IMG/VR virus record: IMGVR_UViG_3300021431_004525
Strand: one strand, 5' to 3'
Origin: a virus
Lineage: Duplodnaviria > Caudoviricetes
DNA: 64,000 nucleotides
Shown here piece after piece: positions 595 through 25,969 of this stretch. The first letter of the stretch is position 1, and the number at the start of each line of letters is the position of its first letter. The position numbers and the translations under genes were made by a program. A model generated the notes under the pieces. That model was given only the letters and a program-made list of their open reading frames with translations. It had not been told where the DNA came from and searched no databases.

Positions 595-755
595 GGAAAA
601 ATAAACGATAATACCAAAATATTTTAGTTAAAGTAAGTTAAATTCAAGAAAAAGGTGGTACTTAATGGTACCGTCCAACTCTTATCTTCTAATAGTTTAA
701 GGGTCAAAGAGATAAATTATTAGAATGCCGTAAAAGTCTGCGAAACCGGCCAAGC

Positions 756-872
756 CTACACGCGAAGGAACGCCCGGACATAGTAGTTGTAGTTCTTACG
801 GTTGGCATCCACACTACCACCGTTCGTATACACGCGGTATGCGTGGCTACTATCATACTCAGAACTCGACCA
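756..872 (-). repeat. DGR variable repeat VR1
   Basis: Gap-free 117-nt alignment to 24956-25072, with differences concentrated at codon positions 1 and 2. Confidence 0.8.
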
Positions 873-1772
873 AAGCCAGCGATACAACAGAGTAGCACCC
901 TTCAACATTATAAGCGAAAGATTAATCTGTGTAGTATTTTCAAACATCTTCTCCAATTCACCTATCGCCCCTACATACCAATCTCCGGACTTCGTTCCTT
1001 TGGTTTTATATTTAGAAATCCACTTGAACATTGGGTAATTTGTAGGTTTATATTCCTTCGATTTAAGAACATTTTCAGTTAATTCCTTGCCGTTTAAGGA
1101 TTTTTCATAAGTTTCATAAGAAACTGCATTGTTAATAAGAGGACGCATACTATGTTCAAGTGTACACCACTTTTTTTCGACTTCATCTCTTGAAACGACA
1201 ACCGGTTTTCCATCCTCATTGAAAAATCCGACAACACCGATTATATTACCATCTTTTTCCGGAGTATAGTCTGACCGATGAATACACGTCTTGTTTCCAT
1301 TATCATCGGTCATACAAAAATCACCAATGGACACCTTATCTCCTTCAATATTCTGTGGGTATGCGTCAGCAATTGTTTCCATAATAATATCAATGGATTT
1401 TGCCTTAACCGGCTCTTTAATCACCTTATCGGTGATAAACATTTTTCTTGCACAAATCTGGCTTAATTCATCATTGACAAAAAATTCTGTTCCGGAAGGA
1501 ATAACTGCTTCAAATACAATATCTTTATTGCTTAAGCCTCCATGTTCATCCTCTGCATACAGCAAAGCATGGATAAATCCACCTCTTACTGAATTACGTC
1601 TGTTATTATTATATTCAATGCTTAAATCGTCAGCAACCATTTCCTTATTTAATTCTACATTAGTACGCTGATACGGAGTTGAATAAGTTCCATTTGGATT
1701 CTTCGTTAATACTTTATAGCAAATAATATCCTCTTTTGTTATAAGTTTTTTAATTCCGGTTGATAGACACAT
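756..1772 (-). CDS. DGR target-like protein with C-terminal C-type-lectin-fold (DUF1566-like) variable domain
   Basis: C-terminus WSSSEY..AY.V...G......K...YVRAFLRV*. Paralog of 24956-25969. Confidence 0.8.
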   Translation of the reverse strand: MCLSTGIKKLITKEDIICYKVLTKNPNGTYSTPYQRTNVELNKEMVADDLSIEYNNNRRNSVRGGFIHALLYAEDEHGGLSNKDIVFEAVIPSGTEFFVNDELSQICARKMFITDKVIKEPVKAKSIDIIMETIADAYPQNIEGDKVSIGDFCMTDDNGNKTCIHRSDYTPEKDGNIIGVVGFFNEDGKPVVVSRDEVEKKWCTLEHSMRPLINNAVSYETYEKSLNGKELTENVLKSKEYKPTNYPMFKWISKYKTKGTKSGDWYVGAIGELEKMFENTTQINLSLIMLKGATLLYRWLWSSSEYDSSHAYRVYTNGGSVDANRKNYNYYVRAFLRV

Positions 1773-2360
1773 ATTTTTTTGTTATTTTAATGTTTTTACA
1801 TTGCAAAAGTACAAAATAAATTTGAAATAACCAAATATTTTTTAATTAAGTAATATTAAATGGTTTTACTTTTTACTATTGTAAGACCGCCTTGTTTTTC
1901 TTTCGTTTCAAACTTAGCAAGTTCGGCAAAATAATTTTCCTTCTGTTCTATATTAAAAGCGTTATCCCTATCTTTTTCAGTGGCAAATAGTCTAACTTTT
2001 GGTATCTCATACCATTCTATTGCATCATCATACCACCCATCACGTTTTTTAGTGATGATTGCATATCCATATATCATAGTGCTTAATTATTGATATTAAT
2101 TATTTTCCACTTTAGTCCAGACAAACATTGTATCAGAGCCATCACCATAATTTGCCCCATCAGCACAGAAGAAAAACTCATTAGGCTGCGTAAGGTCTAC
2201 CTTATGGAAATGGTAAGCACAAGCACCGATAGTGTCCTCTTTGGTGAAAAACTCTACTGCCCGGTCATAAGACATCTTACCAATCTCCTCAAGGTCGTAA
2301 TAGTAAGACGGATTTACGCTTGCTGAAAAAATGGTTACTTTCATATTAATTAATTTTTAA

Positions 2361-2708
2361 TTATTTCTTAAAATCAAATCTCCAATAAGGAAAACCATTT
2401 GAAGTATTCTCATAACGTAAAATACGTACAAGAGTTAAGTTCTCATTATCAAGCATTATACGTAAGAATTTCTCAACATCTTCCGGATGGCGGTCTGAAT
2501 AGAACGCTTGGCCTTGATTGCCCCATATCTTCTGACACGTCTCATTATACTTCTTGCTATCCCATCCATAAAGCCGGTCAGAATATACAGATTCGCTTGC
2601 CTTTTCATTATTACCAAAGCCATATTGAATAATACCGCCATCATATCTGGCGAAATCATAACCAATCATAACGCCATTGCCATCGAAATAAATTACTTCT
2701 TCAATCAT
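2361..2708 (-). CDS. hypothetical protein
   Basis: 115-aa ORF directly behind promoter 2731. Confidence 0.8.
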   Translation of the reverse strand: MIEEVIYFDGNGVMIGYDFARYDGGIIQYGFGNNEKASESVYSDRLYGWDSKKYNETCQKIWGNQGQAFYSDRHPEDVEKFLRIMLDNENLTLVRILRYENTSNGFPYWRFDFKK

Positions 2709-2804
2709 ATATTACTTTTTAATTTGACACTGCAAAGGTATAAAGAAAAAACGGAATATCCAAACATTTTTAGTTAATAAATCTGAACATTCCGTTAATT
2801 GTTG

Positions 2805-3308
2805 TTAATCATCGTCATCCATTACCTTCATCTTCTTCTTTTTCCTACTCTCTTTATAGATTTTCTTCTGTTCTTTCTTCACCTCTTTCCAATATTGTTC
2901 CTCTTTCTTAGTACCTACATAATCAGTGGTATAGGTGGTTGTTACCTCACCATTCTCATTATAAGATGTGGTATAGGTGGTATGATAGACCGGTTTCCTT
3001 GTATCGGCATGGGTATTAAGGTAACTCTTTACAAGATACACTTCATCACTACGTCCGCCACCGGATGAATTTTTGAAACCGGTATCAGTGTTCTGTTCGG
3101 TCCGTCTTGATTGGTCGTTAAGATAGACACTATTCTCCCTCATAAAGTTACGATAGTGTGAAGGACGATAGACACTCTTATCTGAATAGGTACGAGAGAA
3201 ATCCGGCTTATAGCCATAAGGTCTGTTAGGAACATAATAGGTCGTTCCGCAACTTGTAAGCAAAAGCACACTTACCAAACAAATCAAAAACAAAACACTC
3301 TTTTTCAT
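2805..3308 (-). CDS. putative lipoprotein
   Basis: MKKSVLFLICLVSVLLLTSC lipobox signal. Start trimmed to 3308, downstream of promoter 3379. Confidence 0.7.
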   Translation of the reverse strand: MKKSVLFLICLVSVLLLTSCGTTYYVPNRPYGYKPDFSRTYSDKSVYRPSHYRNFMRENSVYLNDQSRRTEQNTDTGFKNSSGGGRSDEVYLVKSYLNTHADTRKPVYHTTYTTSYNENGEVTTTYTTDYVGTKKEEQYWKEVKKEQKKIYKESRKKKKMKVMDDDD

Positions 3309-3452
3309 ATTATTTAATTTTACAATAATCTTCCAACTTATTACTCTTATTATTATATATACTTCTTTAATTTGACGATGCAAAGTTAGCGAAAAAAACG
3401 CAGACCACCAAACAATTTTAGTTAATCTGCGCTAAAGAACTGTTAATGTGTG

Positions 3453-4211
3453 TTAATCACTTTCAAACTTCTCAATAAGTTGCCTTAGAATAGGTAATAC
3501 CTTATCACGATACTTTTCTTTCTGTCCGGATAATATCATATCAATATTCTGTATATCCGCATCTTTGAGGGAACTGAACGAATCAGATAGGCTGGTTAAA
3601 ATCTCAATCCCACTATTAACATCGGCAATAAGTTGTGTGGAAACAAGTGAATTAATTTGAGAAACAGCCTCCTCTGCATTACTGAAACTTAAACTAATCC
3701 AAGAATTTTGAATATCCCTTACAATACGTCCGGAAGTAGAATATTTATTCTTTTCTCCATCTGTACGATAATCCATCTCAAAAGAAATGCACACCATTTC
3801 ATCACCCATTGAATTATTAAGACGATAGGTTGAATAATTACTATTCCAATTCATCTTCATTCCTATCACATTGGTAAGATACCAGTGGATTTTTCTTTCC
3901 TCATTATAATAAGGCAGTGTCATTGGGTCATAACATATTGATGGAAATGCAAGTGTTTTATTATACTCCGTTACATCTGTAATAAGTTGGTCTGCATCTG
4001 TATAAGTCTTATCATTGAAGATAACGCTTTTCTTCATTGTCGGCTTTGCCGTCACAGAGAAGAAATAATCAAGGCCGCCACCTTCAGGGGAAATATATAC
4101 ATCATATAAGTTTGCGACCTTTTCCTCGGCAAAATCATTACGCTTGCACACATAATAGTCGGTATTGAGTGTGCGTAGTAACGTATTAGATGATTTAAAT
4201 AACTTGTTCAT
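3453..4211 (-). CDS. hypothetical protein
   Basis: 252-aa ORF. Confidence 0.85.
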   Translation of the reverse strand: MNKLFKSSNTLLRTLNTDYYVCKRNDFAEEKVANLYDVYISPEGGGLDYFFSVTAKPTMKKSVIFNDKTYTDADQLITDVTEYNKTLAFPSICYDPMTLPYYNEERKIHWYLTNVIGMKMNWNSNYSTYRLNNSMGDEMVCISFEMDYRTDGEKNKYSTSGRIVRDIQNSWISLSFSNAEEAVSQINSLVSTQLIADVNSGIEILTSLSDSFSSLKDADIQNIDMILSGQKEKYRDKVLPILRQLIEKFESD

Positions 4212-4216
4212 ATTAA

Positions 4217-4933
4217 TTAATCTTTAAGTGCTTCCGGATTTGTGAGTTTATCATCAATCCTATCAAACATAGTTCTGTATTCCTCGTCTTGTTTCATCCA
4301 AACCTTAATACCATTCATAATAACCTTCAAGATATGTTTATCTGTACCGAACTTGCCGACACCAGCAAGATATGTACGCATATCCTCGTCATTAAGCAAA
4401 TCCCATGGGCCACAAGTAGGATAGTTCATACAGAACTTATCTTCACCATTTCTGCATTCGTAGTCAATTGAGAAATAGTAAGGACGCTTGACAAGTGGCT
4501 TACCATCTTCATCGTAACCCTTAACATAACAGATACGCATCCACCTACCCATGTGTCCGACTTCCCATCCCTTACCTAAGTAATCCTCGATAATGCCGGA
4601 AATGTAATTCCTTGTACTTGTCTCAATCCCCTTAACCTTATCAATAAGGCTTGTACGTTTCGCCAATAGGTCTGCCTTATACTTCTCGCCCTCCGGTGTC
4701 TTGAAATATTCCTCCCTTTTCAGTTCTTTCTTTGCAGAAGCGATGGCATTCTTCACACAAGTAATGTCATGCTCCAATACAGGAGTCTTTGACTTCCGTA
4801 CATTGTAGTCAAACACACTGCCATTCAGATACTCGTCAGTCAGTTCAACAACCTTATCGGTCTCACCTTTAAGAGTATAATACTCATTCTTTAACTCGAT
4901 GTACTTCTTGTAAAGTTCTGCTTTCTTTGTCAT
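4217..4933 (-). CDS. hypothetical protein
   Basis: 238-aa ORF behind promoter 4965. Confidence 0.85.
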   Translation of the reverse strand: MTKKAELYKKYIELKNEYYTLKGETDKVVELTDEYLNGSVFDYNVRKSKTPVLEHDITCVKNAIASAKKELKREEYFKTPEGEKYKADLLAKRTSLIDKVKGIETSTRNYISGIIEDYLGKGWEVGHMGRWMRICYVKGYDEDGKPLVKRPYYFSIDYECRNGEDKFCMNYPTCGPWDLLNDEDMRTYLAGVGKFGTDKHILKVIMNGIKVWMKQDEEYRTMFDRIDDKLTNPEALKD

Positions 4934-5644
4934 AACTCAATCTGTTTTATTTGTTTAACGTGGTGCAAAGGTACAAAGGATATTTCAATCTACCAAACAA
5001 TTTTACTTAATAAATGTGAAACAAGTGTTAAAAGATTAAAAACGCATAAATCTCGTTAAACGTCATATTTCTCAATTTCTTTTTTCTGTTTCTTAATAAG
5101 TTCCTTGCAACTATCAATCTTCATCAAGGCAATACCGATTTCGGCTTGATTATCCTTAATTTTATCCAGAAGAATATTATATATTTTCCTCTTTGCATCA
5201 ATTTCAGTCGTGAACACATTATAATGCGTCTTTTGTGCATCACGGGACACATAATCAATCTTGAATTCACCCTCTTCCTCCGGAGAATTGGGTACTTTCT
5301 CTGCAATTGTAATTGTCACAGAATTATCAGATGGATATTCCACCTTACTGGCATGCCCTTCAAAAATTGATGGTATATCGCCATATTCAATGATATACAG
5401 AACATCACCCACTTTAACATCACCAAATGTCTTATACTCTCTTTCCATAAACTATCTTTGTCTGAAGTTAAATAAACAATGTAAAGTAAAATTATAACTA
5501 TCTTCTTCAAGCATAGAAGTTAATTCCTCTGTAATATCCTTTTCCGGAATAAATTGAAGAATATAACTTTTTAATTCTTCAGCGATTTCTTTTGGACGTA
5601 ACCTTAAATCCTTTGCTACGATGCGTTTGTACTCTCTTTCCATA

Positions 5645-5923
5645 TTACTCCCAAGTTACTTTCTTTTCCAAATATCCTTTACCTTTGCATCGTGGACAAG
5701 TATGATGTTCATAATATCCACCCATTGGACCATCCCAATGTTCATAAGGTTCTATCCATTTGCCCCTCCAACCACCTTCTCCGCCACATTCTGGACATAC
5801 AATACGTGTACCATCTAAGATTTTCTCATGGTGCTTACAATCTTCCAAAGATGTAAATTCTTGTCCATCCTTTGCTACATATACTTTGTAGTCAACGGTT
5901 TTCTGTCTTGTTACTTCTTTCAT
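5645..5923 (-). CDS. DnaJ-type zinc-finger (CxxCxGxG) small protein
   Basis: CPECGGEG and CPRCKGKG motifs. Confidence 0.7.
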   Translation of the reverse strand: MKEVTRQKTVDYKVYVAKDGQEFTSLEDCKHHEKILDGTRIVCPECGGEGGWRGKWIEPYEHWDGPMGGYYEHHTCPRCKGKGYLEKKVTWE

Positions 5924-6240
5924 ATTTATTTTTTAATTCTTCTATTTCATCATGCAATGCTTCAATGTTATCATTATTGAAAGCAACTCTGTTACTGATT
6001 ATAAATGTTCCGATATATAGAACTCCAACAGATACAGCAACAGCCCAATCACCCCATTTATACGCAAAATTACCAAACATTATACCGAGCAGAAAGATAA
6101 ACATTTTATCCCACGTAAAAACCTTTGGCTTAAATTCTTGATACTTCTTCATATTCTTATATTTTATTTCTGACTGCAAAGGTAATAAAAAAAGTCGAGA
6201 ATACCAAATGTTTTCCCGACTTTAACATTAGTTTAACAGT

Positions 6241-6738
6241 TTAAGGACGATATTTCTTGAATATATCACTGATTAACTTTTCATGACCAAATGCCCACCG
6301 ATAACCCTTGATGTCTTGTACCTTGATGAACTTAATCATTCCAACCTCTTTGCCCTCATTACCGGCATGGGAGAATTTGAAATCCTCTGCTTTCTTATCC
6401 TTGATAAATGCACAGAAACGGAAGGTAACATTCTGTCTGTTTTCCTTTGGACTATCATTGTAGCCGACAAACTGCAAATCACTCTCTTTAAGTGATACAC
6501 CGGTTTCCTCCTTTAATTCTTTACAAGCATTTTCTGCTGCGGTGACATTGAACTCAAGGTAGCCACAAGGACAATTCCAGTAACCCTGATAGTCTGCCGC
6601 TTCCTCTCCACGTTCAGACCCTAAAACACACCAATCGTTTTCTTTGTCTTTAGCAAAAACAAATACTGCCGTTGCCATAGACCTACTAAACCACCCAAGA
6701 AATTTCCCATTCTTGTCATAACATTCTTGATTCTGCAT
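6241..6738 (-). CDS. Nudix hydrolase
   Basis: Nudix box G-YLEFNVTAAENACKELKEETGV, plus a C-terminal AFGH motif as in ADP-ribose pyrophosphatase-like members. Confidence 0.9.
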   Translation of the reverse strand: MQNQECYDKNGKFLGWFSRSMATAVFVFAKDKENDWCVLGSERGEEAADYQGYWNCPCGYLEFNVTAAENACKELKEETGVSLKESDLQFVGYNDSPKENRQNVTFRFCAFIKDKKAEDFKFSHAGNEGKEVGMIKFIKVQDIKGYRWAFGHEKLISDIFKKYRP

Positions 6739-8056
6739 ATTCTAATTCTAAAATTTTATGTTTTAATTCATCTAAATTTTTGTATATTTTTTCACCAAAT
6801 AAAGTCTCTGGTGCAATAAATCTATCATCTTCTGCATAATAGAAAAGTTTTTTAATGTTTTCTTTGCATAAATTGTATTTTCGTAAATCTCTTTCTCGAT
6901 TTGTTTTTAATCCTTTTTCGCCACCATAAACATCAAGTGCTTTAAAGTGTTGTATTCCTTGACATTCAATAGCAACATCTAAATCCTTGATATAATAATC
7001 AAGATGTTGTAAACCTAACCATTTAGCATGATACCCATTTTTATATTTAATACCACATTCATCAAGTAATTTGCCAATTTTCAGTTCCAATTTGGATTTT
7101 CTACAATTAGGACAACTTTCACCGGCAAGATGTTTATTTGGTGACATCCAAAACTCGCCATGCTCCGGACAAATGATACAAACTTTATTTATGGCTTTTG
7201 TATAAACGACTTTTGAGTAATCATATTTGTCACCATGAATTTGTCTAAATTCTTTTATTACACTTTCGGTTGTTTTATATTTTCCTGCACAAGATGGGCA
7301 ACCTTTACCTCTTAAATGATTATTCGGTGTAACACAAAACTCGCCATGCTCCGGACAAATGATACAAACTTTCTTGTTTGATTTTTCATAAATCACCTTG
7401 GAATAGTCATACTTATTACCCCATATCTGTTTTGCCTTCTCAATAAACTCTTCAGTGTTGGACGTTAGTGCTGCGTGTTGACATCCTTTGCATCCTTGTC
7501 CTCGTACATGATTACTAGGGGTTTGCCAAAACTCACCGTGTTCCGGACAAATAATTCGCATTTTAGTAACCATATTAGTAAACGTATTTTCGTCATACTG
7601 ATATTTGTCACCATGAACTTTTCTTGCCCTTTCTATAAATTCAGTATATTGTATTTGATAACGTTCCTTATCATTCTTTTCTTTATTATTTTTTAGAAAA
7701 TTGCAAGGCTTTATGCTAAATTCGCCATATTTAGGACAGATTATAATAACCGGAATTTTCTCATTTATATACTCTACTTTGGAATAATCATACCTATCCC
7801 CATGTAAATTTTTAGCCTTACGAATAAACTCTTGTTTTAATTTTTCTCTCTGTTTCTCTTTGGTACATTCCGGACATTCTTGTCCTCCAAGTAAATGTGT
7901 CGCGGAAACTTCCCATATTAAATTATGTTTCTTACAGATTATTTTGACTTTTTCTTTCGGACTTTTGTATTCGACTAATGAATAATCATATCTATCTCCG
8001 TACTTTTCTTTTAATTTGTTAATAAATCTTTCTTGTAAATCCATTATTTTATTCAT
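6716..8056 (-). CDS. putative homing endonuclease: DUF723-like repeats plus C-terminal PD-(D/E)XK/Vsr-like nuclease
   Basis: Five repeats of HGDKYDYSKV.Y....KV.IICPEHGEF...P..HL.G..CP.C, then LDYYI...VAIECQGIQHF. Confidence 0.8.
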   Translation of the reverse strand: MNKIMDLQERFINKLKEKYGDRYDYSLVEYKSPKEKVKIICKKHNLIWEVSATHLLGGQECPECTKEKQREKLKQEFIRKAKNLHGDRYDYSKVEYINEKIPVIIICPKYGEFSIKPCNFLKNNKEKNDKERYQIQYTEFIERARKVHGDKYQYDENTFTNMVTKMRIICPEHGEFWQTPSNHVRGQGCKGCQHAALTSNTEEFIEKAKQIWGNKYDYSKVIYEKSNKKVCIICPEHGEFCVTPNNHLRGKGCPSCAGKYKTTESVIKEFRQIHGDKYDYSKVVYTKAINKVCIICPEHGEFWMSPNKHLAGESCPNCRKSKLELKIGKLLDECGIKYKNGYHAKWLGLQHLDYYIKDLDVAIECQGIQHFKALDVYGGEKGLKTNRERDLRKYNLCKENIKKLFYYAEDDRFIAPETLFGEKIYKNLDELKHKILELEYAESRML

Positions 8057-8254
8057 TTATATAAATAAATATAATGAACTCTCGCAAAAAAGCAACTTTT
8101 ATTGTTTAATAAAAATCTTTAATTATTTTTTTTTAATCATCCGAGGAATTTTTCCGGACTTATCATAACACTCTTGATTTTTCACTGCAAAGATACGAAA
8201 AATATTTCAAATAACCAAACAAATTACATTCTTTAACACAACTTTAACTTCTGT

Positions 8255-9496
8255 TTATGCTGCATAACGAACAAATAATTCATCAAGCCATCCATTATGT
8301 CTTGCCACATCGTATGCACCATTACTATATTTTCTAAATTCGTTTCTCGTCTTATATTTCTTTGCTTCGGCAAAAACGTTCTCCTTTGTCCAGAATCCTC
8401 TTGGTTTTTGTACTTCTTTAAACCAATCCATTTCGTTCAACCAACCATTTACTCTTGCAACTTGGTATGCTTTATTGTATGATGTTTTAAACTCACTTTT
8501 TGTTTTGAACTTCTTGGCAGCTTCAAATACATTCTGCTTGATATTCCAATATCCGTATGGCTTTAGTAATGATGTGAACCAACTCATTTCCTCAAGCCAA
8601 CCATTTCGTCTTGCAATATCGTATGCTGTATGACAACCATCAGAAAATTTTTTTCTTGTCTGATACTTCTTTGCTTCCGCAAACACTTTCTCTTTTGACC
8701 AGTATTCATTTGGCCTTTGTGATGATATAAGCCAAACCATTTCATCAATCCAATTATTTTTACAAGCAAAAGTGTATGCGCTGCTACAACCTTTTTTAAA
8801 TTCTCTTTTTGTTTTATATTTCTTTGCTTCTGAGAAAACCATCTCTTTTGTCCAGAAAAAATTTGGCTTCCTCCCTTCTTCAAACCAATTCATTTCTTTC
8901 AACAGACCTTTTCGTCTTGCCGCAACGTATGCACTACCACAACCACTCTGAAATTCATACTTCGTTTTATATTTCTTTGCTTCCGCAAATATAGTTTTTT
9001 TGTTCCATTTTCCACTATTAATTGCGCCCAATGAGCCACTACCAATACCGGTTTTTGCAATATTTAAAACATTATATCCTTTATTTTTATAATAGTTCTT
9101 CCAATAATCTTCTCTATCCAATCCTTCCTCGATTGTTAGATTATCCTCAATAATCTCCATTGCCGGAACTTCAAAACCATTTGCATCTGCATATTTGTAT
9201 ACTGTATCTTCTTCTTTTGTTCTGTGTCGACAAATGGTATCAACCTTATGTATTGTTCTACCAATGTAAATTGAGTTTGTTTCTTTGAAATAATATTTGT
9301 AAACACAATCAATTTTATTAGTTAATAGTTTTACTCTACCATCTTCAAACCAATTCATTTCATTAATCCATCCTTCTCGATAAGCAATCGCGTGCGCACT
9401 TGGACACCCTGTTTGAAAATCTGATTTTGTCTCATATTTTTTTGCTTCTGCAAACACATTATCCTTTGTCCAGAATCCTCTTGGTTTTCTTTCCAT
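8255..9496 (-). CDS. GIY-YIG-type endonuclease with ~47-aa tandem DNA-binding repeats
   Basis: CVYKY..IYIGRT and the EDYW..Y...GYNVLN GIY-YIG core. Six WTKE.VFAEAKKYKT..EF.....AY..ARRNGWL repeats. Confidence 0.8.
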   Translation of the reverse strand: MERKPRGFWTKDNVFAEAKKYETKSDFQTGCPSAHAIAYREGWINEMNWFEDGRVKLLTNKIDCVYKYYFKETNSIYIGRTIHKVDTICRHRTKEEDTVYKYADANGFEVPAMEIIEDNLTIEEGLDREDYWKNYYKNKGYNVLNIAKTGIGSGSLGAINSGKWNKKTIFAEAKKYKTKYEFQSGCGSAYVAARRKGLLKEMNWFEEGRKPNFFWTKEMVFSEAKKYKTKREFKKGCSSAYTFACKNNWIDEMVWLISSQRPNEYWSKEKVFAEAKKYQTRKKFSDGCHTAYDIARRNGWLEEMSWFTSLLKPYGYWNIKQNVFEAAKKFKTKSEFKTSYNKAYQVARVNGWLNEMDWFKEVQKPRGFWTKENVFAEAKKYKTRNEFRKYSNGAYDVARHNGWLDELFVRYAA

Positions 9497-9617
9497 AATT
9501 CTTAATTTATTTTATTTGTTAATAATGTTATTTCTTAATTTCGATACAAAGGTACAAAAAAAAGTTGAGAAAACCAAACATTTTCCCAACTTTAACACTT
9601 TTTTAACACTTTATTTT

Positions 9618-9944
9618 TCAAAGAAAATCAAAAACAAGATAATCTCGATGATATTCCGCATCATGTTTAGTTGCGAACATATTGTTAATGACACGCATAA
9701 ATTCATCACGTTTCTCATTCTCCCCAATATAGGTAATTGCTACTTTACCGGTGTCATTAATATAGTAATATTCATTTACCACACGAATTTTTGAACGCTT
9801 GATGTTATTTACTTTTTTCTTATTAAACAATTTAATGTCATAAGTATCATCCCAAGGGATATAACATTCAACTTGTCCAAATTCTATTTTCCCATTTAAC
9901 TTCAACGATACAATAGTACCCTCTTTTAATTTTTGATTTTTCAT
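9618..9944 (-). CDS. hypothetical protein, paralog of 12105-12581
   Basis: Shared YY.IN..G....TYIG.N..RD......N.F.T..(D/E)A motif. Confidence 0.75.
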   Translation of the reverse strand: MKNQKLKEGTIVSLKLNGKIEFGQVECYIPWDDTYDIKLFNKKKVNNIKRSKIRVVNEYYYINDTGKVAITYIGENEKRDEFMRVINNMFATKHDAEYHRDYLVFDFL

Positions 9945-10841: not shown

Positions 10842-11285
10842 TTATCCAAATGTTTCAAAAACGTCCTTAACCTTAGTTACCTTATCCTCTTCAATGAATT
10901 CCATATCTGTGATTGGATAGTCACGCCCTAACAGGTATCTCGGTTCATGCACACGATAATAAAACTCACCGTCTGTATTCCAATATTCATCAATAGATAC
11001 GTAGTTTCCGTCACCATTTACAAGTACGTCTCCGTCATAGATTTTCTTTCCGTTACAATCCTTGAAACCGGTCCAATTCCTGTAAGCAATAAAATGGCAT
11101 TTCTGTTTTTTATAATTTACATAGATATACCATCCGGCAGTAGAAGATTCAATTTCCCTAAAACCGTCGTTACGCAATTTACTTGTTATTTTATCAAGTT
11201 GTTCATCCAACTCATCATAACCGGTGGCTTTGGCAACTTTCTTACCGTCGAAATAAATCTCAAATTCCTTATTGTTTACTTTCAT
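10842..11285 (-). CDS. YopX-like domain protein
   Basis: TGFKDCNGKKIYDGDVL motif. Confidence 0.7.
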   Translation of the reverse strand: MKVNNKEFEIYFDGKKVAKATGYDELDEQLDKITSKLRNDGFREIESSTAGWYIYVNYKKQKCHFIAYRNWTGFKDCNGKKIYDGDVLVNGDGNYVSIDEYWNTDGEFYYRVHEPRYLLGRDYPITDMEFIEEDKVTKVKDVFETFG

Positions 11286-16199: not shown

Positions 16200-17652
16200 A
16201 ACTTCTATCTTTATATTGATTCATATTTATTTTGCATCCTCTATTGTATAGTCTTGTACCTCATGCTCAACGACCATGACATTTGCATCGTCACCGGTAG
16301 CATAGCAATCTACATAGTCCATAATATCATCCACATCGTTAATGTCAGTATCAACGATAACACGCATTGTAACGTTAAGATAAATTTTACTCATTGTTAT
16401 ATTATTTTATGTTAATCAAATTCAACTTCTTCGCCAATTAACTCATGTGCTTCATATATAGCACTTATTTCACCAGAAGAATCAATTGCATCTACAATTT
16501 CATAAGCATAATCATCTATTTCACCGGTCTTTTCAATCCGGTCTTTCAACTGCTCAATTAATTTTTGATTTCTTTCTGTCATGTCTTGTATAATTTACAA
16601 CCATTTTCACTTGTAATTGACAAATACAACCTTAATCGGTTGTAATCTGCTTAAGATACTCATTGATAATCTCCTTGCACCGGTTCTTAACGTCCTCTGT
16701 CAGAATGGCAGTGTCTGTATCAAGATAGTCACCGCTTTCCTTCTCAAAGTAACTTACATTGAAATGCCAACTATCTTCATCGAGCCAGTATTCGGCTTGA
16801 ATATCCTTAGTGACGTTTTTATCTTCTTCGTCAGGGATAGTTTCAAACGAAAGAATACATGTATCATCATCGAGCATTTCAACACACTCAACAACAAGGT
16901 TTCCCACCTTAGTTCCTCTGAAATCATTAATCTCTGCCATAACTCTTACTTGTTTAATTTTGGTGGTGCAAAGTTACAAATAATTTCTGAAACTACCAAA
17001 CGTTTTACCGACTTTAACACTTTTTTAGCACTTTACGCTGCAATAGCCTTGATGATAACAAGTTCATCGAACAAAGTAAGATTTACCTCGATATCGTCAT
17101 AATGTTTCCAACTATTTGGTTTATCTGTGAAACTATCTATATCCACAATGGTGTTCCACACATACTTGCATTTAAGCATGGCCGCACAAATATCATGGGT
17201 AGATAATGTTGTCGTAAGGAACAAAGTATGCGTTTTCTTGTTCCGCTTATTCCTTTTGAAACCGGTAACACTATAATGATGTAACATAACGACAAACTTT
17301 TATTTATTATTTCTGTTCTTAATACGTTCTAAAAGTGCATCAGCATACACAAATCTAATATAAGAAGGACAACTACCATCACTCTTACAGAAATACCCAT
17401 CTTTGAAAAGATGCGGATAAACGTCCAGCACTCTTTTAATTGCCTTATTAAAGTAGGAACTATTATTAGTGTCAACTTGCACTTCTACATCATAAGGGCA
17501 TACCATTATAGGATATACCTCTGTCGAACTACCAGAAATCCATGTATAATCAATGATATGCTTTTGTATGACATTATTAGACAAGCAAGCCTCATATATA
17601 TCCCTTGCTATTTTGTCTTTTATTTCGGACAAATCTATTTTATACATAACTT

Positions 17653-18180
17653 TTACAATATTGAATTAGTAATTACAAAGTCACCGATAAGCAGTCTTGC
17701 AGTATCATCCCAAATGGCGCGCTCATTAGGATAATAGTCACGAAGCCAATCAATAATGTCACCATACATAGTTTGGCCGGAATTGAGAATAGTTGTTCTT
17801 TTCTTTCCGTAAATCTTTGTACGTCCTTTATTCAGAAGGGATAATTCACCTTTGACCTTTTCAAACAACTCCTTTGCAGTCATAGAACCTTTGAGTTTTC
17901 TTGTACGTTCTACCTCAATGGTTTTCTGATAGTCGTAGATAATATTGATATCATACTTGACCTCAATCTCTTTTCTGGGCGTTCCTGTAGGCTCTGTAAT
18001 CTCGACCTCATGCGAGAATACGGCAAAACCCCAAATATCACACACTTTTTCATTGCTCATATCCTCTTTGTAGCAATCGCCCAAAGATGCAAATTCACGG
18101 ATTCCCTTCATACATTCCTCAATAGATGTAAGGTTGTGAAGAACGTCCAACTTTTTAAAATCAAAAACTGAATATAACAT
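17653..18180 (-). CDS. hypothetical protein
   Basis: Start trimmed, because the track start MYLCI is just the promoter box read in frame. Confidence 0.8.
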   Translation of the reverse strand: MLYSVFDFKKLDVLHNLTSIEECMKGIREFASLGDCYKEDMSNEKVCDIWGFAVFSHEVEITEPTGTPRKEIEVKYDINIIYDYQKTIEVERTRKLKGSMTAKELFEKVKGELSLLNKGRTKIYGKKRTTILNSGQTMYGDIIDWLRDYYPNERAIWDDTARLLIGDFVITNSIL

Positions 18181-18642
18181 AACTCTAAAATTTAATTGTT
18201 TAACTTGTTTCTTAAATCTGATGCAAAGATACAATAAAAAAACGAATTATCCAAACTATTTTACTTAATAATTGTGAATAATTCGTTAAAAAATGTTAAT
18301 CAGATAATTTTCTTCATCAAAAGCAACCGGTGCATACGTCTGTAGGCCGTCAATCTGTCTATACATTTCACCTCAAATAAGAATATAGTTTCGTCTTTGA
18401 TGAAACGTATATATTTTACATACACCATCTTTTCTACCGAAGGTAAATTTATTTCACCCTCTGCCAAATACCACTGATATCCATCGTAATGTATAACTCT
18501 GGGAATACAACGCTCCGGATAGAAGATGTATAGAACGGCTCTGAAAATCTTTTTCTTAATCTTAGTTAATAATTTCATATTATCTTATTTTTATATTTAA
18601 CACATTTGTGTGAATAATTGCTGCCAATCAGTAGATTTATTT

Positions 18643-19326
18643 TTAGTAGAGTTTATAATCAAATGGATTACGTCCGGCTTCACCCCACTTCTTGATGGTG
18701 TTCACACATTCCTCTAACTTACCCATAGTCTTGGCAATCTTAACCGGAGACTGAGAGAAAAGTTGGTGCTTAAAGCCTAATTCTCTTGGTGTCTTACCAC
18801 CGAGCATACGACCCTCATAGACCGGCTGACCCTTGAACAGACGGATAGTAATTTCACGATTCTTGCTAACCTTATTGATAAGGTTGTTAAGGGCAATCTT
18901 CATATCGTCCAACTTCCAAGACAGCTGGATGGCGAAATCGTAAATCTCGTTCTCCTTCTTCTTGCCACATTCGTGCATAACGTTGATGATACGCTCGACC
19001 TCACGATACTTCGACTGATAAGCGGAATACTCCTTGCTATAAGGCTTCATAATCTGCTCTGAAACAATGCCGTAGGAGCGATATGCGTGACCATAGAACA
19101 CCGATAAGGACTTGAAGGGTGCAGCACTCTTAATCAGTTTCTCAACCTCCTCTGCAAGGATTGAAATGTCCTTATGATTACCAACGGTAGACTCTTCGCC
19201 GGTTCTGCGAACACGCTTCTTAGCAACTTTCTTTGGCTTCAGCGACTTCTTATAGTCAGCCATAGTCATTTTAACACCGTTAACTGTGATGTACTGCGTC
19301 TTGTCGAAATCAGATATTCCTGCCAT
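18643..19326 (-). CDS. basic hypothetical protein
   Basis: 227 aa, own promoter at 19368, GC-richer codons. Confidence 0.85.
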   Translation of the reverse strand: MAGISDFDKTQYITVNGVKMTMADYKKSLKPKKVAKKRVRRTGEESTVGNHKDISILAEEVEKLIKSAAPFKSLSVFYGHAYRSYGIVSEQIMKPYSKEYSAYQSKYREVERIINVMHECGKKKENEIYDFAIQLSWKLDDMKIALNNLINKVSKNREITIRLFKGQPVYEGRMLGGKTPRELGFKHQLFSQSPVKIAKTMGKLEECVNTIKKWGEAGRNPFDYKLY

Positions 19327-21196
19327 AATTGTAATTTTTAAATGTTTATACTTTGTTTATTTTGATAGTGCAAAGGTACGGCAAAAATTTGAATCTACCA
19401 AACTTTTTCTGTTAATAAAGGCAAAGAATCTGTTAAAAAATGTTTAGCCTTCTAAAAGTTGTGATTTATAATCATTCAATTCCTTCTTAATGTTATCTAT
19501 TTCCTCTTTAAGTGTCTGGATTTGCTTGTCTTGTTCCTCATTTCTTACACGCTCAATAGATATAAGACAAAGAACAATAAAAAACAATCCGGCAGTAAAG
19601 CCACCTATATAGTCAACAGCCATATAGCAACCCAACCCATACAATAAGAATATAAATAAATTCTTTAAACTATATTCCTTAAACATAACTCAATATTAAT
19701 TAGTTTTTAATACTCCCATCCGCATAAAGGTTTCCGGCCAATCTTTCCACCTTGTTCATCATCTGATATTTTCTTTCCTTTTAAACGGATATACTTATTG
19801 ACTTGTTTTTTAAGCCAACGTCTGGAATGTGAAAGATGCCTCCACGGATTATCCATGTTTCCATCTTTCTTCCACCAATATTCAAGATGTTCAATCTGTT
19901 CTCTTGTTAATGCCATATTAATAAGGACAATTAATACTATCTAAATAGTTTAACATTTTCTCTGATGTATTGCACGCATATTCATTTCGTTCATCAAACC
20001 AACCGGTTTTAGCGTTTTCTGCCAATATCTTGATATAAGCCATACACAATTTGAACATGTTAGACTGCAAAGTCCGGTGGTCACTTGCCATACGTTCTGC
20101 GGCCTTACGCTCATTGTGACTGCAATTATTCACATAGTCCGAAAAGAAACGTGCAAATACATCATCATTGGTTTCACCACTGCGAGGACAAAGTGTAGAC
20201 TTGAAACGCTCATAGACCTTTTTCATAAGGAACTCACGACCCATATCTGTGACATCGTGGTCTCCTTCAAGCAGTTCAACAATCTGGCCGTTGTTCAACT
20301 CATAGTCCTCATACTCTCTACCATTCAATTCAAACTTCATATTTAATACTTTTTAAATTGTTTTATGCCAAACCGGAAGATAACCATTATCCAAGTGTTC
20401 CTCACCGGAAATTAAATTGACAAATTCCTCAAAATCTTTCTTTGATTCAGTTTTCCAAAAATAACCAAGAGGTGCATCATATTCATCAAGCCATAATGAC
20501 CAATGACCAATACAACCATTATCCATTAATTTAATTCTATCCTGACAGATTTCATTACCGTCATCGACCATTTCATGTCCGGAATAGATATAGTCAATCA
20601 TTTCCTTTGCGGAAGAAAAATGGTACTTTTCAAGATGCTCAAGGTGTTCTACCTCTTTTTTAATTTTTTCGGCATACTCCTTAATTTTCTTCTTATAGAG
20701 TGCTTCTTCTGACATTTGAGATTCCACACCCATTTCGTCCATCATGTTCTGCCAATTATTTTTGGACTTTTCTGACATTTTAAACTCCATAGTAGATTTC
20801 CTTTTGAATTATAGTGCAAAGATAATAAAAAAAGTTGAGACTACCAAGGATAATTTCAACTTTAACATTATTTTAACGCTTATTCTTTAATAAATCCATT
20901 TTTCACACACCAGTCATATAGACCTTGCAATGCTTCGTTTGGTGTTTTACCATAGGCAAACGCATTATTATATGGCGGTTCTGTTGCATCCGGATTAAGG
21001 CATACAAAATTTCCCTCTGTACCATAGGAGGCTAACCAATCTTTTCCATCATTATGAAGATATAGCCACCCAATATCACCACCTTCCTTATTGTCTGTCT
21101 TATAAGCGACTACATTACCATCTTTATCCAGTACCTTATTACGACCAATATGGGATGGTAACTTTAAAAGTAATTCATCTGTCGACATGTCAAATA

Positions 21197-21700
21197 TTAT
21201 CTAATTTTTACTATCTTAACTTTTGTTTTCTTGAAATTTTTCTCACCGGCATGTTGCAATATATCTATGTAATGATTAAACCTCTTATTCATGGTGTCTC
21301 GCACTTCATAATACCCATGTCCTTCTATATGTACCACACTCCCTAAAGGAATGTATTTAAGCAAATCCCTGCTCACGGCACAATACTTAATCTCACCCTT
21401 TTTGAGTTTATTCAAATCTATTTTTGTTCCATCGGCAGTTACAAGTGGGTCATTATCACATTGTGATTCCACCGGATTATATGTTGTAAGTGTAACATGT
21501 GTAGTGAAACGTCCGGAATTATTGACTTTTTTCAGACTATCAGTCTTGACTTGAATACTATCTGTTACCGGTTTATCATTGATAGGTTTTCCGGTCTGCT
21601 CTTGCGTCTGATACAGAGAAAGCATAAACATAAACATAAGCATGTAAATGAAAACCACATTTGTGAGAGCGAATAGTATATACACAAAGAAATTCTTCAT
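21197..21700 (-). CDS. membrane-anchored 3D-domain (MltA-like) peptidoglycan-active protein
   Basis: N-terminal TM segment. TYNP..QCD.DPLVTADG, CAVSRD, YEVRDTM, IDI motifs. Confidence 0.85.
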   Translation of the reverse strand: MKNFFVYILFALTNVVFIYMLMFMFMLSLYQTQEQTGKPINDKPVTDSIQVKTDSLKKVNNSGRFTTHVTLTTYNPVESQCDNDPLVTADGTKIDLNKLKKGEIKYCAVSRDLLKYIPLGSVVHIEGHGYYEVRDTMNKRFNHYIDILQHAGEKNFKKTKVKIVKIR

Positions 21701-22355
21701 ATTAATTAATTTTTAGTGTAACAAACAATAACGTAACGTATTTCTCTCCTTACCACAACTTACTCACTCCAAGTTTTATTTGAAACAATATCAGCCTTAT
21801 TCTTATAATCCTCAATGGCAACATAATCATTCTTGAAAGTAGTTCCATCATACTCCGGAGAATATGCGAAAACAATCTCCTGATATACTTTCTCTTTATG
21901 CTTGTTTTCCTCATGCCAGAAACGATGTGCCGTAATATCAAACAAGAATGTTGAGATAATTACCGGTTCACACTTGACCACATATTTAGTGTTGATGGTC
22001 TTGTTTCGACCTTTGTAATCTTCAAGAGACACAAGTTGATGGCTTCCTTCCGGTACTGCTTCCGCAAAAAATTCATTCCAATTAGAGCCACCCATGCCAC
22101 CACCACAAGACATCTTGACACGATAGCCGACCTTTTCAGAACTATTGACGAACTTTGAAGGTGCGCAAGGCAAACCAATCTCAATCAAATTCCTTTTCAT
22201 ATTAATTGATTTTTTAAGTGTTTATATTTTATTTATTTTGATGGTACAAAGGTACAAATAATTTCTAAATTACCCAAATATTTTCACCACTTTAACACAA
22301 ATTTAACACTACGCGGCAGAATGATTGATACCAAGTGTCTGTAATTCATATAATT

Positions 22356-23772
22356 CTTTCAAGGAAACTCCATCCTTTAGGGTGGAGAGGAATTGAAAGT
22401 GGTCTTTTATTATTAAACTTATTTATTTTTTCATTTGCAAATTTACAATGTTTTCGGCAGAAAACAAAATATTTTTTGCAAAAAATATTTAATTATTGAT
22501 ATTTTTTATATTTATTAACATATTTATATATAAATTACGTTCACGACGTGAACAATACATAAATAAAATGATACTGACGTATAACATACAACTGCAACCG
22601 GATAAAACCACATATGACTACTGGGTTTCACTCCTTACAGATACTGCAAAAGCATACGACCTTTGCAGCGGCCTGCTTGCAGATAACAATACACCACTTA
22701 CCATCAAGTCAGTACATAATACATGCTATAACGTGGTACGTGAACAATTCCCCAACCTACCGGCACAATCCGTAATACGTGTACAAAAAGAAGCAATGTC
22801 CGCACTAAGAAGCAGAAAAGGCAACAAGCATAACGGAGATAAGCCAACAAAACATAACTTATCTCTCACACTCGATAAACGCATGTATTCAAGGCTTACA
22901 CCGGAAAACATTGCAATATGCGGAGGCATAAAGGGAAAACGCACCACCGTACCATTCGTCACCTACGACAAGGAAAAACAGATGTTTTCCATGTATAAGC
23001 CGTGTGACCCATTATTATTCCTACGTAGCAATACCCTATGGCTTTCTGTACCATTTAATGTACCGGATACCGTAGTATGCAATGACAACTCCATCGGTGT
23101 GGACTTGGGTATGAAACGTCTATTCGTCACATCTGAAGGTAATGCCTTCGTGGATAAGGAATACCTTCGTAATCGTAGAAAACTGCGTTACCTTAAACGC
23201 TGTTTGCAGAGTAAAGGTACTAAATCCGCAAAGAGACATTTGAAAAAAGTATCACGTAGGGAACGTAATATGTCAAGAGATATGCAGAACCGTGCGGTTC
23301 TTGCATTGATTGAATCCACCGATGCCGGTGTGATTGTAATGGAGGATTTAAGCAAGATTAAGAAAAACACGTCAAAGAGCAATGACGGATTTAAACGTAA
23401 GCGTCACAACAACGCAATTGCGCAAGTGCCGTTTGCGGAGTTCAAGACACGACTGACCAACAAGGCACACCTTTTCGGCAAGGAGGTGAAAACAGTTTCT
23501 CCGGTTTACACCAGTCAAACAGATTGCAGGAATGACAAGCGTAATGGCAAGCGTAATGGTTGCCGTTACTACTGCAAGGATGGTTTGGTATTGGATGCAG
23601 ACTGGAACGCAGCAGTCAACATAGCCAAGAAAGGCAAACACCCGTTTTCGAATATTCTTCCAGTCGACGGAAGGCTTAGGTTCTTAAACGGCAGGGTTTC
23701 GTCAATAACCCAATTGTCTGCATCCCTTAATGGGAACGGACAAGCCCCTCACTTTAGGGAGGGGTAATTGAC
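22356..23772 (+). mobile_element. IS200/IS605-family TnpB-only (IS1341-like) element
   Basis: Related subterminal hairpins CTCCATCC-TTTA-GGGTGGAG (left) and CCCCTCAC-TTTA-GGGAGGGG followed by TAATTGAC (right) flank tnpB. No tnpA. Exact ends uncertain. Confidence 0.8.
22568..23767 (+). CDS. tnpB: TnpB RNA-guided endonuclease
   Basis: RuvC I GVDLG, RuvC II VMEDL, YTSQT, RuvC III DADWNAAVNI. Start trimmed to ATG 22568. Confidence 0.92.
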   Translation: MILTYNIQLQPDKTTYDYWVSLLTDTAKAYDLCSGLLADNNTPLTIKSVHNTCYNVVREQFPNLPAQSVIRVQKEAMSALRSRKGNKHNGDKPTKHNLSLTLDKRMYSRLTPENIAICGGIKGKRTTVPFVTYDKEKQMFSMYKPCDPLLFLRSNTLWLSVPFNVPDTVVCNDNSIGVDLGMKRLFVTSEGNAFVDKEYLRNRRKLRYLKRCLQSKGTKSAKRHLKKVSRRERNMSRDMQNRAVLALIESTDAGVIVMEDLSKIKKNTSKSNDGFKRKRHNNAIAQVPFAEFKTRLTNKAHLFGKEVKTVSPVYTSQTDCRNDKRNGKRNGCRYYCKDGLVLDADWNAAVNIAKKGKHPFSNILPVDGRLRFLNGRVSSITQLSASLNGNGQAPHFREG

Positions 23773-24411
23773 ATATTAAACATTGAATAATAAAAAAGTA
23801 TGCTATATCATACATAATTTCAAACAACTGGGAAATTACATATAACATAGCATAGGCCTATATACGTACTCATTCGAGTACATTAGTAATCATCGACATC
23901 TAATTCTTCCATGCCATGTAACCAGTCATTATATCTTTCCGCTATCGGCATAGTGACATATAATTCATCGGTTGTACCGCCATATTGTTGCCAACTCTCA
24001 TAACAACGTTCAATGTAGATAACAGAACCGGTATTTAACTTTACCTTAATTTTTCTCCGTTTAGGCTGATTCACATACAGAAACTCAACCTTAGTTACTT
24101 TAATTTCATCATCTTTTCTTGCCATACTACGCTACTTCTTTAAGTTCATATCCATAGCCACGGAGCAGAATTTCCGGATTATCCTCACCTGAAATCCATT
24201 GACCGCAAAAATCAAGGCAGGCTTCATCCTTGGCTTCCAAATCTGTCCAGACTATTCCCTTGTCCTCGCACTGCTTATCAAACATGTCTGAAAGCATTGC
24301 CAACTCTCCGTATGATGGTTGTCTTTCCATGATTTATGTTTTTAAATAAATTAATCTTCAATCTACTTGTTTACCGGTTCCTTATTATTCATTTTTTGTC
24401 AGTCCAATTTA

Positions 24412-24807
24412 TTAAATCATATCACAGATGGCAACACGCTTTCCGGCACGTATTAACTTAGGGAGATAAGTATCAAGGGCATGGTATGGAAAACCGGTCA
24501 AATTATGCCATATACCCTTATAGTTACAAAGACTAATCCCCAGAATATTAGCAATATCTACTGCATCATTTTCGTAACTCTCATAGAAATCACCACAACG
24601 GAACAGAAGAATAGCATCCGGATACTTTGCCTTCAGTTCATGGTAAGTTACCACTTTCTCTTGAGCCTTGATACTCTCTATTTTCTTTTCGATAGACTGC
24701 TGACGTTGAAAAAGTGCTTCAGAAACAGCCTTTGCGTTCTGATAGGTCTTGTTCACGAAAGAAAGTTCATTCTCTAACTGCTTGATAAGTTCCTTATTAC
24801 TTTCCAT
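24412..24807 (-). CDS. stand-alone MutS domain I (mismatch-binding) protein with N-terminal coiled coil
   Basis: [23 protein letters not shown]...[25 protein letters not shown]. No ATPase domain. Confidence 0.88.
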
Positions 24808-24955
24808 AACTTTTGATTTTATTTGTTGTTCTGTTTTAATTACGATGCAAAGGTAATACATTTTTTCCAAATAACCAAGGAAATTACGCTAAATTATGTT
24901 AACAATATGTTAAAAAATATAAGGTGGTTTCAAAAGTCTGCAAAACAGACCGACC

Positions 24956-25072
24956 CTACACACGAAGGAATGCCCGGACATAGTGGAGGCTGCTCTTATT
25001 GTTGATACCCATGTAACTGCCGTACATATCCACGAGGTATGCGTCGACACAATCATACTCAGAACTCGACCA
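24956..25072 (-). repeat. DGR variable repeat VR2
   Basis: See VR1. Followed by a GTCTG-TTTTG-CAGAC hairpin. Confidence 0.8.
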
Positions 25073-25969
25073 ATATAATGAATCAAGCAACGTAGCACCA
25101 TTCAATAAAAACAATGAAAAATTAATAAGAATAGCGTTCTTTGACATTTTTTCCAACTCGCCAGCAGCACCTATATACCAATCTCCGGACTTCGTACCTT
25201 TGGTCTTATATTCACTAATACATTTGAATATAGGATATTTCTCTGGTTTGTAAACCTTTGATTTAAGGGCATTTTCAGTTAATTCCTTGCCATTTAAAGA
25301 TTTTTCATAAGTTTCATAAGAAACTGCATTGTTAATAATAGGACATTTGGACAATCCAAGAGTACACCAACGCTGCATACTACTTTCACGGGAAATAACT
25401 ACCGGATTACTATTCTCGTCATAGAAGCCAACTACACCAATAATATCCTTATCTATCTCTGCGGTATATTCATCACGATGAATATATTTCTTACTGCCAT
25501 CTGGCTGAACGACGCAAAAATCGCCAATAGATACTTTACCCTCCTCTATCGTCTGCCTATAATCATCCTGTAACATATCTATAATACAACCGATACTTTC
25601 ACGTCCATACGCTTTATCCACTACCCTGTCAGTAATGAAAATTTTACGGGCACAGATTTCAGAAAAATCATCAGATACATAAAACTCAGTACCAGCCGGA
25701 ATAGTTGATGTGAAAACCCTACAGCCTTCGCTAAAACCGCCAGTCGCATTTTTTACTATTAAGAGTGCATGAATAAATCCATCACCTATGTAGTTACGTC
25801 CATCCTTACAATATGTACGTTTATCTTTGGCCTTAAGAGTTTTATTCAGTTTAACAGATGTGCCTTGATATGGAGTTACATAACCACAATTATCACAAGA
25901 CCGAAGCACTTTGTAACAAGTGATGTCGTTTTTAGCGACCATCAATTTAATGTTTGTTGTTAGACACAT
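24956..25969 (-). CDS. second DGR target-like protein with C-type-lectin-fold variable domain
   Basis: Full-length paralog of 756-1772. Ends YWSSSEY...YVRAFLRV*. Confidence 0.8.
   Translation of the reverse strand: MCLTTNIKLMVAKNDITCYKVLRSCDNCGYVTPYQGTSVKLNKTLKAKDKRTYCKDGRNYIGDGFIHALLIVKNATGGFSEGCRVFTSTIPAGTEFYVSDDFSEICARKIFITDRVVDKAYGRESIGCIIDMLQDDYRQTIEEGKVSIGDFCVVQPDGSKKYIHRDEYTAEIDKDIIGVVGFYDENSNPVVISRESSMQRWCTLGLSKCPIINNAVSYETYEKSLNGKELTENALKSKVYKPEKYPIFKCISEYKTKGTKSGDWYIGAAGELEKMSKNAILINFSLFLLNGATLLDSLYWSSSEYDCVDAYLVDMYGSYMGINNKSSLHYVRAFLRV

Follow-up and report, generated by a model that had tools for sequence, protein, structure and literature searches.

In a 64,000-nucleotide stretch of DNA from a tailed virus (Caudoviricetes; IMG/VR record IMGVR_UViG_3300021431_004525), here called the window, two paralogous genes end in blocks that a diversity-generating retroelement (DGR) very likely wrote, and wrote recently on the timescale over which the paralogs diverged. 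We consider it fairly probable that both of these variable regions arose by mutagenic retrohoming from one template repeat (TR), carried by a cassette that likely lies elsewhere in the ~392-kb phage genome. The initial annotation of the window had drawn attention to two paralogous open reading frames (ORFs) at 756-1772 and 24956-25969, and both are indeed present, on the minus strand. The features that matter most for the argument are these:

756..1772, minus strand: copy A, an ORF of 338 residues with an N-terminal beta-rich domain (residues 1 to ~120) and a DUF1566/Lcl_C C-type-lectin-fold region (residues ~141-338)
24956..25969, minus strand: copy B (protein P0049), an ORF of 337 residues; by alignment a paralog of copy A, with a 57% identical protein
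756..872, possibly reaching 884, minus strand: variable region A, the last 38 codons plus stop (codon table, sliding table and mapping to adenines of the TR class)
24956..25072, minus strand: variable region B (codon and sliding tables, 20-mer search, mapping to the TR class and comparison with the relative L067)
732..755, minus strand: segment after the copy A stop codon, in which GCAGACTTTT is conserved (alignment); its hairpin is weak, with a DNA fold z-score of 0.10
24932..24955, minus strand: post-stop segment of copy B, a 5-bp hairpin GTCTG/CAGAC followed by TTTT (alignment, DNA fold)
1068..1160, minus strand, with its partner at ~25268-25360: second island of near-identity between the paralogs, residues ~205-235 (sliding codon table)

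The exact proteins of both copies are encoded by one 391,794-bp metagenome contig (ENA ERZ28612959, scaffold_13), onto which the window maps from ~368,052 and across the contig end; the genome is therefore probably circular or terminally redundant. Homologues of the copy A/B family were found on contigs of 292-400 kb, and eight or more assemblies of huge phages, about 290-400 kb in size, keep the family; its carriers therefore form a clade of huge phages, apparently with Bacteroidales hosts.

Codon pattern, adenine sites and fold

A gap-free alignment of copies A and B, counted back from the stop, shows 23 differences at first or second codon positions in the last 39 codons and only 4 at third positions, exactly the counts that had first been made by hand. 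The 71 codons just 5' of this block show 27 differences at positions 1/2 and 35 at position 3, a different distribution from that of the block (Fisher p = 0.0004). In a sliding table over the whole gene, third-position differences mostly amount to 10-16 per 20 codons, which is near saturation, as against 2 per 20 codons in the last ~40 codons, where positions 1/2 differ 12-19 times. This saturation is broken at two places only, the last ~40 codons and the island at residues ~205-235. Outside the variable region and this island third positions are saturated; inside them they are near-identical, which points to a recent shared template. The island itself is probably a gene-conversion patch between the paralogs; it is set apart from the variable region by saturated sequence and resembles patchy gene conversion.

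The variable codons have a common form. With a single exception they share their third base between the two copies, and in most of them this base is C or T, as in the pairs AGC/GTC, CAC/GAC, GCC/ATC and AAC/CTC. GC content reaches 0.49-0.51 in the variable regions, compared with 0.35 in the remainder of the gene. The conserved 3' end and the post-stop GCAGACTTTT described by the initial annotation occur in both copies. A 20-mer at the block start, TGGTCGAGTTCTGAGTATGA, has only two sites in the window, one in each copy (0 expected by chance), and a 22-mer close to the stop is likewise confined to the two copies within the window; neither these searches nor a repeat search found a third copy of the block there.

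An independent line of evidence comes from a profile of the 42-residue block, which we searched against 1.84 billion representative proteins. It retrieves many short Asn-rich ORFs (P0058, P0062 and P0075, for example) that sit between an Avd-like gene and a reverse transcriptase (RT), in avd-TR-RT cassettes, and these ORFs are therefore template repeats read as ORFs. The positions that differ between copies A and B are the Asn positions of the TR-encoded ORFs. At the DNA level, the TRs of two contigs, L060 and L061, carry both variable-region ends exactly (TGGTCGAGTTC.GAG and CTATGTCCGGGCGTTCC). Compared with these non-cognate TRs, the variable regions mismatch at 45-52% of adenine sites and at 13-21% of other sites. 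Sites that vary among variable region A, variable region B and the related protein P0007 fall on adenines of the TR class in 31 of 45 cases, versus 7 of 61 other sites (p = 9e-10). The variable regions have GTCCGGGCGTTCC in common with TRs of the class, and beyond it the sequences diverge; it is a candidate for the GC-rich IMH that a DGR variable region carries at its 3' end, ahead of a hairpin.

Orthologues of copy A in sister huge phages vary in the same place and hardly anywhere else. In orthologue clusters of at least 90% identity, the block averages 0.72 bits of entropy per column, as against 0.08-0.11 elsewhere, and columns with at least three residues number 17/43 in the block versus 6/302 elsewhere in one cluster and 14/44 versus 2/301 in another. 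The variable columns use N, G, Y, S, A, T, D, H, L, C, V, P, R, F and I, the residues that adenine mutagenesis of AAY codons can yield; outside this set K occurs once, and E, Q, M and W are absent. Copy A adds a further clue. Its syntenic orthologue is P0032, on a 391,872-bp contig, and its body clusters with the P0032 clade, the variable regions of which end RVRAFAAF; its own variable region is of the type of copy B, YVRAFLRV. Such a mismatch between body and variable region fits homogenisation within one genome by a genome-specific template.

The initial annotation had expected a C-type-lectin fold for the domain that carries the block, and the structure prediction it called for bears this out. 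In an AlphaFold2 model of copy A (predicted local distance difference test (pLDDT) 89.6; predicted template modelling score 0.86), residues 141-338 match the Bacteroides ovatus fimbrial protein 4eps (Z 18.2, 188 residues aligned, root-mean-square deviation 2.8) and the C-terminal domain of Legionella Lcl (8q4e, Z 12.2), with the variable region at the C-terminal end of the domain. Many further C-type lectins also match, including the DGR targets TvpA (Z 6.4) and Mtd (Z 4.8). The Pfam family PF07603 Lcl_C (DUF1566) was detected at E = 1.4e-4, with 22.6 and 14.7 bits, under the gathering threshold of 34.9 bits. Given a strong fold-level match to Lcl and a Pfam score under threshold, the model places the C-terminal region as a divergent relative of Lcl_C, and not as a member by the Pfam criterion. 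Adenine mapping, fold and the hypervariable sister-phage orthologues together uphold the earlier identification of the blocks as DGR-type variable regions.

The N-terminal part is a different matter. Residues 1 to ~120 are all-beta, with invariant C2, D15, K20, T32 and H68 and an IPxGT motif, and the domain modelled by itself reaches a pLDDT of 89.0. It has no match in Foldseek, Pfam, PADLOC or a sequence profile search of the Protein Data Bank (PDB). In a wide PDB structure search, the large majority of the top 50 chains have the ADP-ribosyltransferase (ART) fold (Tpt1/KptA, Arr, Tne2, Scabin, PARPs and DarT), all with Z of 4.6 or below. The domain is possibly ADP-ribosyltransferase-like, a lead from modelling rather than an assignment, with no catalytic motif identified. 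Predicted viral structures show it as a stand-alone domain in phages and, in giant viruses, joined to repeats of the ankyrin, pentapeptide or DUF4116 type; IMG/VR phages of ~97-100 kb that have no RT also carry it alone. As the initial annotation had said, there is no signal peptide: a hydrophobic N-terminus is absent from both proteins.

Origin of the variable regions

In the mechanism we propose, copies A and B encode a two-part protein, in which a beta-rich, possibly ADP-ribosyltransferase-like N-terminal domain is joined to a DUF1566/Lcl_C C-type-lectin domain with the last ~38 codons as variable region. Both variable regions would be copied from one TR of the class encoding YWSSSEY..NN..A.N.NTNNGN.NNNNKNNNNYVRAF, and cDNA synthesis by the DGR reverse transcriptase would randomise the template adenines, mostly in AAY codons. 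Our search for a TR, RT or Avd covered the window and 9 kb upstream of it (L001), together 73 kb of the 391,794-bp genome; the template and RT would lie outside this sequence, most likely elsewhere in the ~392-kb genome, and the RT would come from an avd-TR-RT cassette of the type seen in other huge phages. The codon pattern, the fold, the mapping to adenines of the TR class, the hypervariability of sister-phage populations and the promoter motif are observed; we infer that a cognate TR and RT are present in this genome, that diversification is ongoing and that the products work within the infected cell.

Such cassettes do exist in other huge phages. By a search for RT homologues and cluster listings, DGRs of the same TR class (WSSSE...NNNNK...VRA) were located in three further lineages. 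Two of them, L082/L081 (311 kb) and L063/L062 (378 and 334 kb), have target-avd-TR-RT cassettes, at L082:8769-9880 and L063:6780-8010; their variable regions differ between samples at TR adenines only, and these DGRs are therefore active. The target beside the cassette in L082 and L063 has an N-terminal part that differs from that of copies A and B. The third lineage, L065/L066 (380 and 318 kb), has bAvd-TR-RT and no adjacent target: at L065:10001-11635 (a 380,007-bp contig) and in L066, the RT ORF (544 residues) begins with the TR, joined to it in frame, and is preceded by a bAvd-like gene; the cassette is part of the replication module and is flanked by genes of replication and of nucleotide metabolism. 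Huge phages of this kind thus have DGRs of their own, in some cases with no target beside them; this does not imply that the window phage encodes one. None of the TRs of the three lineages is cognate to the window variable regions.

Several results weigh against retrohoming from a template in the same genome, and many of them come from the search for that template. Within the window, the repeat search and searches with the 20-mer and 22-mer (3 mismatches allowed) find only the two variable regions. Searches by phmmer with five RTs and five Avds against all six-frame ORFs of the window and the 9 kb upstream gave nothing significant. GenBank phages contain no DNA match to the variable regions, with only distant tblastn matches (Bacuni_F1 and Lak phages), and exact and degenerate TR/variable-region patterns gave 0 matches and no cognate repeat in IMG/VR. 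None of the RT-bearing contigs inspected or listed is of the sizes of this phage clade's contigs. The nearest TRs, those of L060 and L061, mismatch the variable regions at 8-13 non-adenine sites, and because of these differences their sequences mark them as relatives rather than the template.

Other adverse points come from the genes themselves. The copy B variable region is identical in three of the four variants of its own cluster, which show 7-8 residue differences elsewhere, and because it is the same in three otherwise diverged variants, current activity at copy B is doubtful. Copy B and its 91.5%-identical relative L067 differ in the variable region (43 codons) by 10 position-1/2 and 6 third-position changes, as against 17 and 22 in the remaining 295 codons. 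Three variable-region codons are changed at both first positions, and the 16 nucleotide differences fall only partly at inferred adenine sites. The hairpins 3' of the variable regions, clearer in P0007, are weak in copies A and B and may simply be terminators. Finally, patchy gene conversion between the paralogs could account for part of their third-position identity. Copy A has no variants on record, and the hypervariability described above is seen in orthologue clusters from sister phages; diversification activity thus looks lineage- or target-specific.

The initial annotation had proposed one trans-acting RT and TR outside the window. Its remoteness stands: the window and the 9 kb upstream contain neither RT nor Avd nor TR, so a template can only be a remote one, and there is no RT for at least 25-49 kb on either side. 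The other half of the proposal, a single RT and TR in this genome serving both genes, is what we would expect rather than what the 73 kb revealed.

The wider searches had the same outcome. Protein-based scans of IMG/VR returned only homologues of the N-terminal domain, in the ~97-100 kb phages mentioned above, and GTDB genomes gave no cognate repeat and only distant matches in Alphaproteobacteria. In JGI metagenomes, the variable-region profile found 25 loci, some with several copies resembling the variable region, with no RT in their flanks and none cognate. Among the TR ORFs from the profile search of 1.84 billion proteins, none is cognate and none is on a contig of this phage.

Several candidates were set aside. 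The 13 IMG/VR matches to a 17-mer from the 3' end are due to chance; the one candidate TR-encoded ORF from a search for shorter proteins is a truncated target; the 423-residue plus-strand ORF at 22496-23767 is not an RT, as it encodes TnpB; and the second copy in the Lak-A1 megaphage is not a TR, as it is a paralog with a 12-nt indel.

The strongest alternative is that copies A and B are fossil targets, written by an ancestral DGR or acquired with the domain, that now have no cognate TR or RT and change by ordinary mutation and selection. Such a history would account for the empty search of the window and the 9 kb upstream and for the unchanged copy B variable region across three diverged variants. 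It also has parallels: the distant family member P0022 has a variable region that is identical in two samples and that a 3-nt indel and mismatches at non-adenine sites separate from the nearest huge-phage TR, and Lak-A1 has two such domains and no PF00078 match in 541 kb. Yet in the variable region, unlike in the saturated flank, the paralogs still have near-identical third positions, which dates the writing as recent, and the sister-phage clusters are hypervariable today. We regard this alternative as unlikely.

In a second alternative, the Bacteroidales host and not the huge phage carries the cognate TR and RT, on a temperate phage or another of its elements, and these would rewrite the phage genes during infection. 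The TRs closest in DNA do come from cassettes outside huge phages, namely L061 (a 55.8-kb contig with an integrase) and L060 (a 1-kb fragment), both with exact matches to the variable-region ends; RTs 64-88% identical to that of L061 are found in Paludibacteraceae and Prevotella metagenome-assembled genomes; and the GC content of the variable regions is nearer that of the L061 element (0.43) than that of the phage (0.35). However, neither TR is cognate, several huge phages encode their own cassette, and the TRs of AT-rich huge phages are, by eye, GC-rich. We also know of no precedent for DGR homing across genomes, which counts further against this alternative, and we judge it distinctly improbable.

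That no retroelement was involved, only diversifying selection on a binding loop combined with gene conversion between the paralogs, is very improbable: the separate conversion-like island at residues 205-235 and the position-1/2 excess, also expected from positive selection, would fit, but selection leaves unexplained why the adenines of an independent TR class should mark the sites that vary (p = 9e-10), why the third base is unchanged in nearly every variable codon and mostly C or T, and why the AAY-derived set of 15 residues has almost no E, Q, K, M or W.

Promoters, neighbouring genes and mobility

Three further features belong to the surroundings of the two genes:

1804..1835, minus strand: promoter motif TTTG-N-TAnnTTTG of Bacteroidota type, 31 nt 5' of the copy A ATG
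26005..26036, minus strand: promoter motif TTTG-N-TAnnTTTG of Bacteroidota type, 35 nt 5' of the copy B ATG
24412..24870, minus strand: stand-alone MutS domain I protein of 152 residues, directly 3' of copy B (Pfam MutS_I E = 5e-22; NCBIfam)

The window is dense with small minus-strand genes. The motif TTTG-N17-23-TAnnTTTG, which we take to be the Bacteroidota -33/-7 promoter, occurs 43 times in it, versus 4.5 expected. Up to ~50.9 kb almost every one of these motifs lies on the minus strand, and beyond that point they lie on the plus strand; nearly every small gene thus has a promoter of its own. The initial annotation was right to give both target genes host-type promoters, as each is preceded by the motif. 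The kind of promoter, the gene positions, the absent signal peptide and the weak fold resemblance point to a probably non-structural architecture and a possible effector role. The early, intracellular and anti-defence roles that had been proposed for the proteins are suggested by three things, namely location, promoter type and the weak resemblance in fold.

The target genes can also change place. In the relative L014 (9050-10277), a copy-B-like gene with its promoter and terminator lies between the equivalents of window positions 19431 and 19440, 5.5 kb away, and L014 has no such gene at the place that corresponds to window 24846-26024. Since the copy-B-like gene sits at a different intergenic site in L014, we conclude that copy A/B genes behave as mobile cassettes.

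The MutS_I protein has its own promoter motif and no ATPase domain, and is 91% identical to its L014 counterpart. Its adjacency to the target is kept in L067 and lost in L014, where MutS_I is in place and the target elsewhere, so it is not a strict partner of the target. There is no avd or RT near it in the window or 9 kb upstream. By analogy with known systems, it could possibly be a DGR accessory of the MutS-like (MSL) type.

Other genes of the region are of interest in their own right. The TnpB gene at 22496-23767 (plus strand; NCBIfam guided_TnpB E = 4.5e-43) encodes an RNA-guided endonuclease and lies on the strand opposite to its neighbours; its segment is absent from L067 and is therefore a recent IS200/IS605-type insertion in a huge-phage early region. 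An HNH/DUF723-type endonuclease is encoded at 6716-8056 (minus strand; phrog_559 E = 2e-73). The gene at 8255-9496 (minus strand) is repeat-rich, with a 153-nt internal periodicity and repeat families D7 and D9, and has a partial copy at 31911-32163. In the Lak-A1 megaphage (MK250016), two DUF1566-like C-terminal paralogs at 401296-401536 and 529257-529498 are 128 kb apart and 73% identical, with the 12-nt indel noted above; the 541-kb genome has no PF00078 match.

Comparison with known systems

The variable regions belong to category 'd'/CLec2 DUF1566 of Wu et al. 2018, exemplified by LdtA of Legionella pneumophila, a class that includes small MutS-like accessory proteins of 112-283 residues (PMC5758913). 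LdtA, like copies A and B, has its variable region at the C-terminus of a DUF1566/Lcl_C-type C-type-lectin domain, and the 152-residue MutS_I protein, a possible counterpart of the MSL accessories of this class, lies beside copy B. However, LdtA is a surface lipoprotein encoded beside its RT, whereas copies A and B have no signal peptide or lipobox and a different N-terminal domain, and lie in a phage early-gene region with no RT within 73 kb.

Two further systems share individual features. Bacteroides uniformis phage Bacuni_F1 (MT635598; PMC8143477) is likewise a Bacteroidales phage and represents the category 'd' class among phages; its DUF1566 target matches residues 186-336 of copy A (tblastn, 28% identity, E = 1e-6), and the gene calls show its TR, between avd and RT, as a small ORF rich in Asn. 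Unlike the huge phages, Bacuni_F1 is a compact 40-kb siphovirus with target-avd-TR-RT in its tail/structural module, whereas copies A and B are isolated cassettes with their own promoters. The DGR of Treponema denticola (TvpA, PDB 2y3c) resembles our reading in that one TR is proposed to serve several dispersed targets with the C-type-lectin fold (Z 6.4), but it is cellular and its targets are surface lipoproteins, while the window genes are phage-borne.

Targets more than 100 kb away have been thought unlikely for phage DGRs (Wu et al. 2018, PMC5758913), and remote targets were not detectable in the largest metagenomic DGR survey (Roux et al. 2021, PMC8144416). A phage genome of 392 kb makes such remote targets (>100 kb) possible.

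Phage T4 offers a functional analogy for the N-terminal domain. Its ADP-ribosyltransferases Alt, ModA and ModB are effectors that act upon proteins of the host at an early stage of infection. This likeness is one of function only: the N-terminal domain of copies A and B has ART-fold matches with Z at most 4.6, and the T4 enzymes have no sequence similarity to copies A and B and no hypervariable domain. We tentatively propose, as an idea still rather unlikely on present evidence, that a DGR here diversifies the targeting domain of intracellular early effectors (an ART-like domain with a hypervariable C-type-lectin tip) and not a receptor-binding tail protein, and that these effector genes lie tens to hundreds of kilobases from the RT and are possibly written by a host retroelement. 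If this effector reading were true, targeted hypermutation would be a weapon in the intracellular arms race between phage and host.

Most known targets of phage DGRs are tail or receptor-binding proteins encoded beside their RT. Here, by contrast, DGR-type variable regions are found on promoter-equipped, signal-peptide-less cassettes in an early region, fused to a domain that other viruses join to ankyrin or pentapeptide repeats. If copies A and B are confirmed as active targets, DGR biology would reach intracellular effectors and very long-range targeting within one phage genome, and the proteins would provide a natural scaffold in which an enzyme-like domain is joined to a programmable binder. 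Overall, copies A and B differ from the known category 'd' DGRs in three ways: their N-terminal domain is unrelated and possibly enzyme-like, they are cassettes of the early region rather than of a tail module, and they have no adjacent RT.

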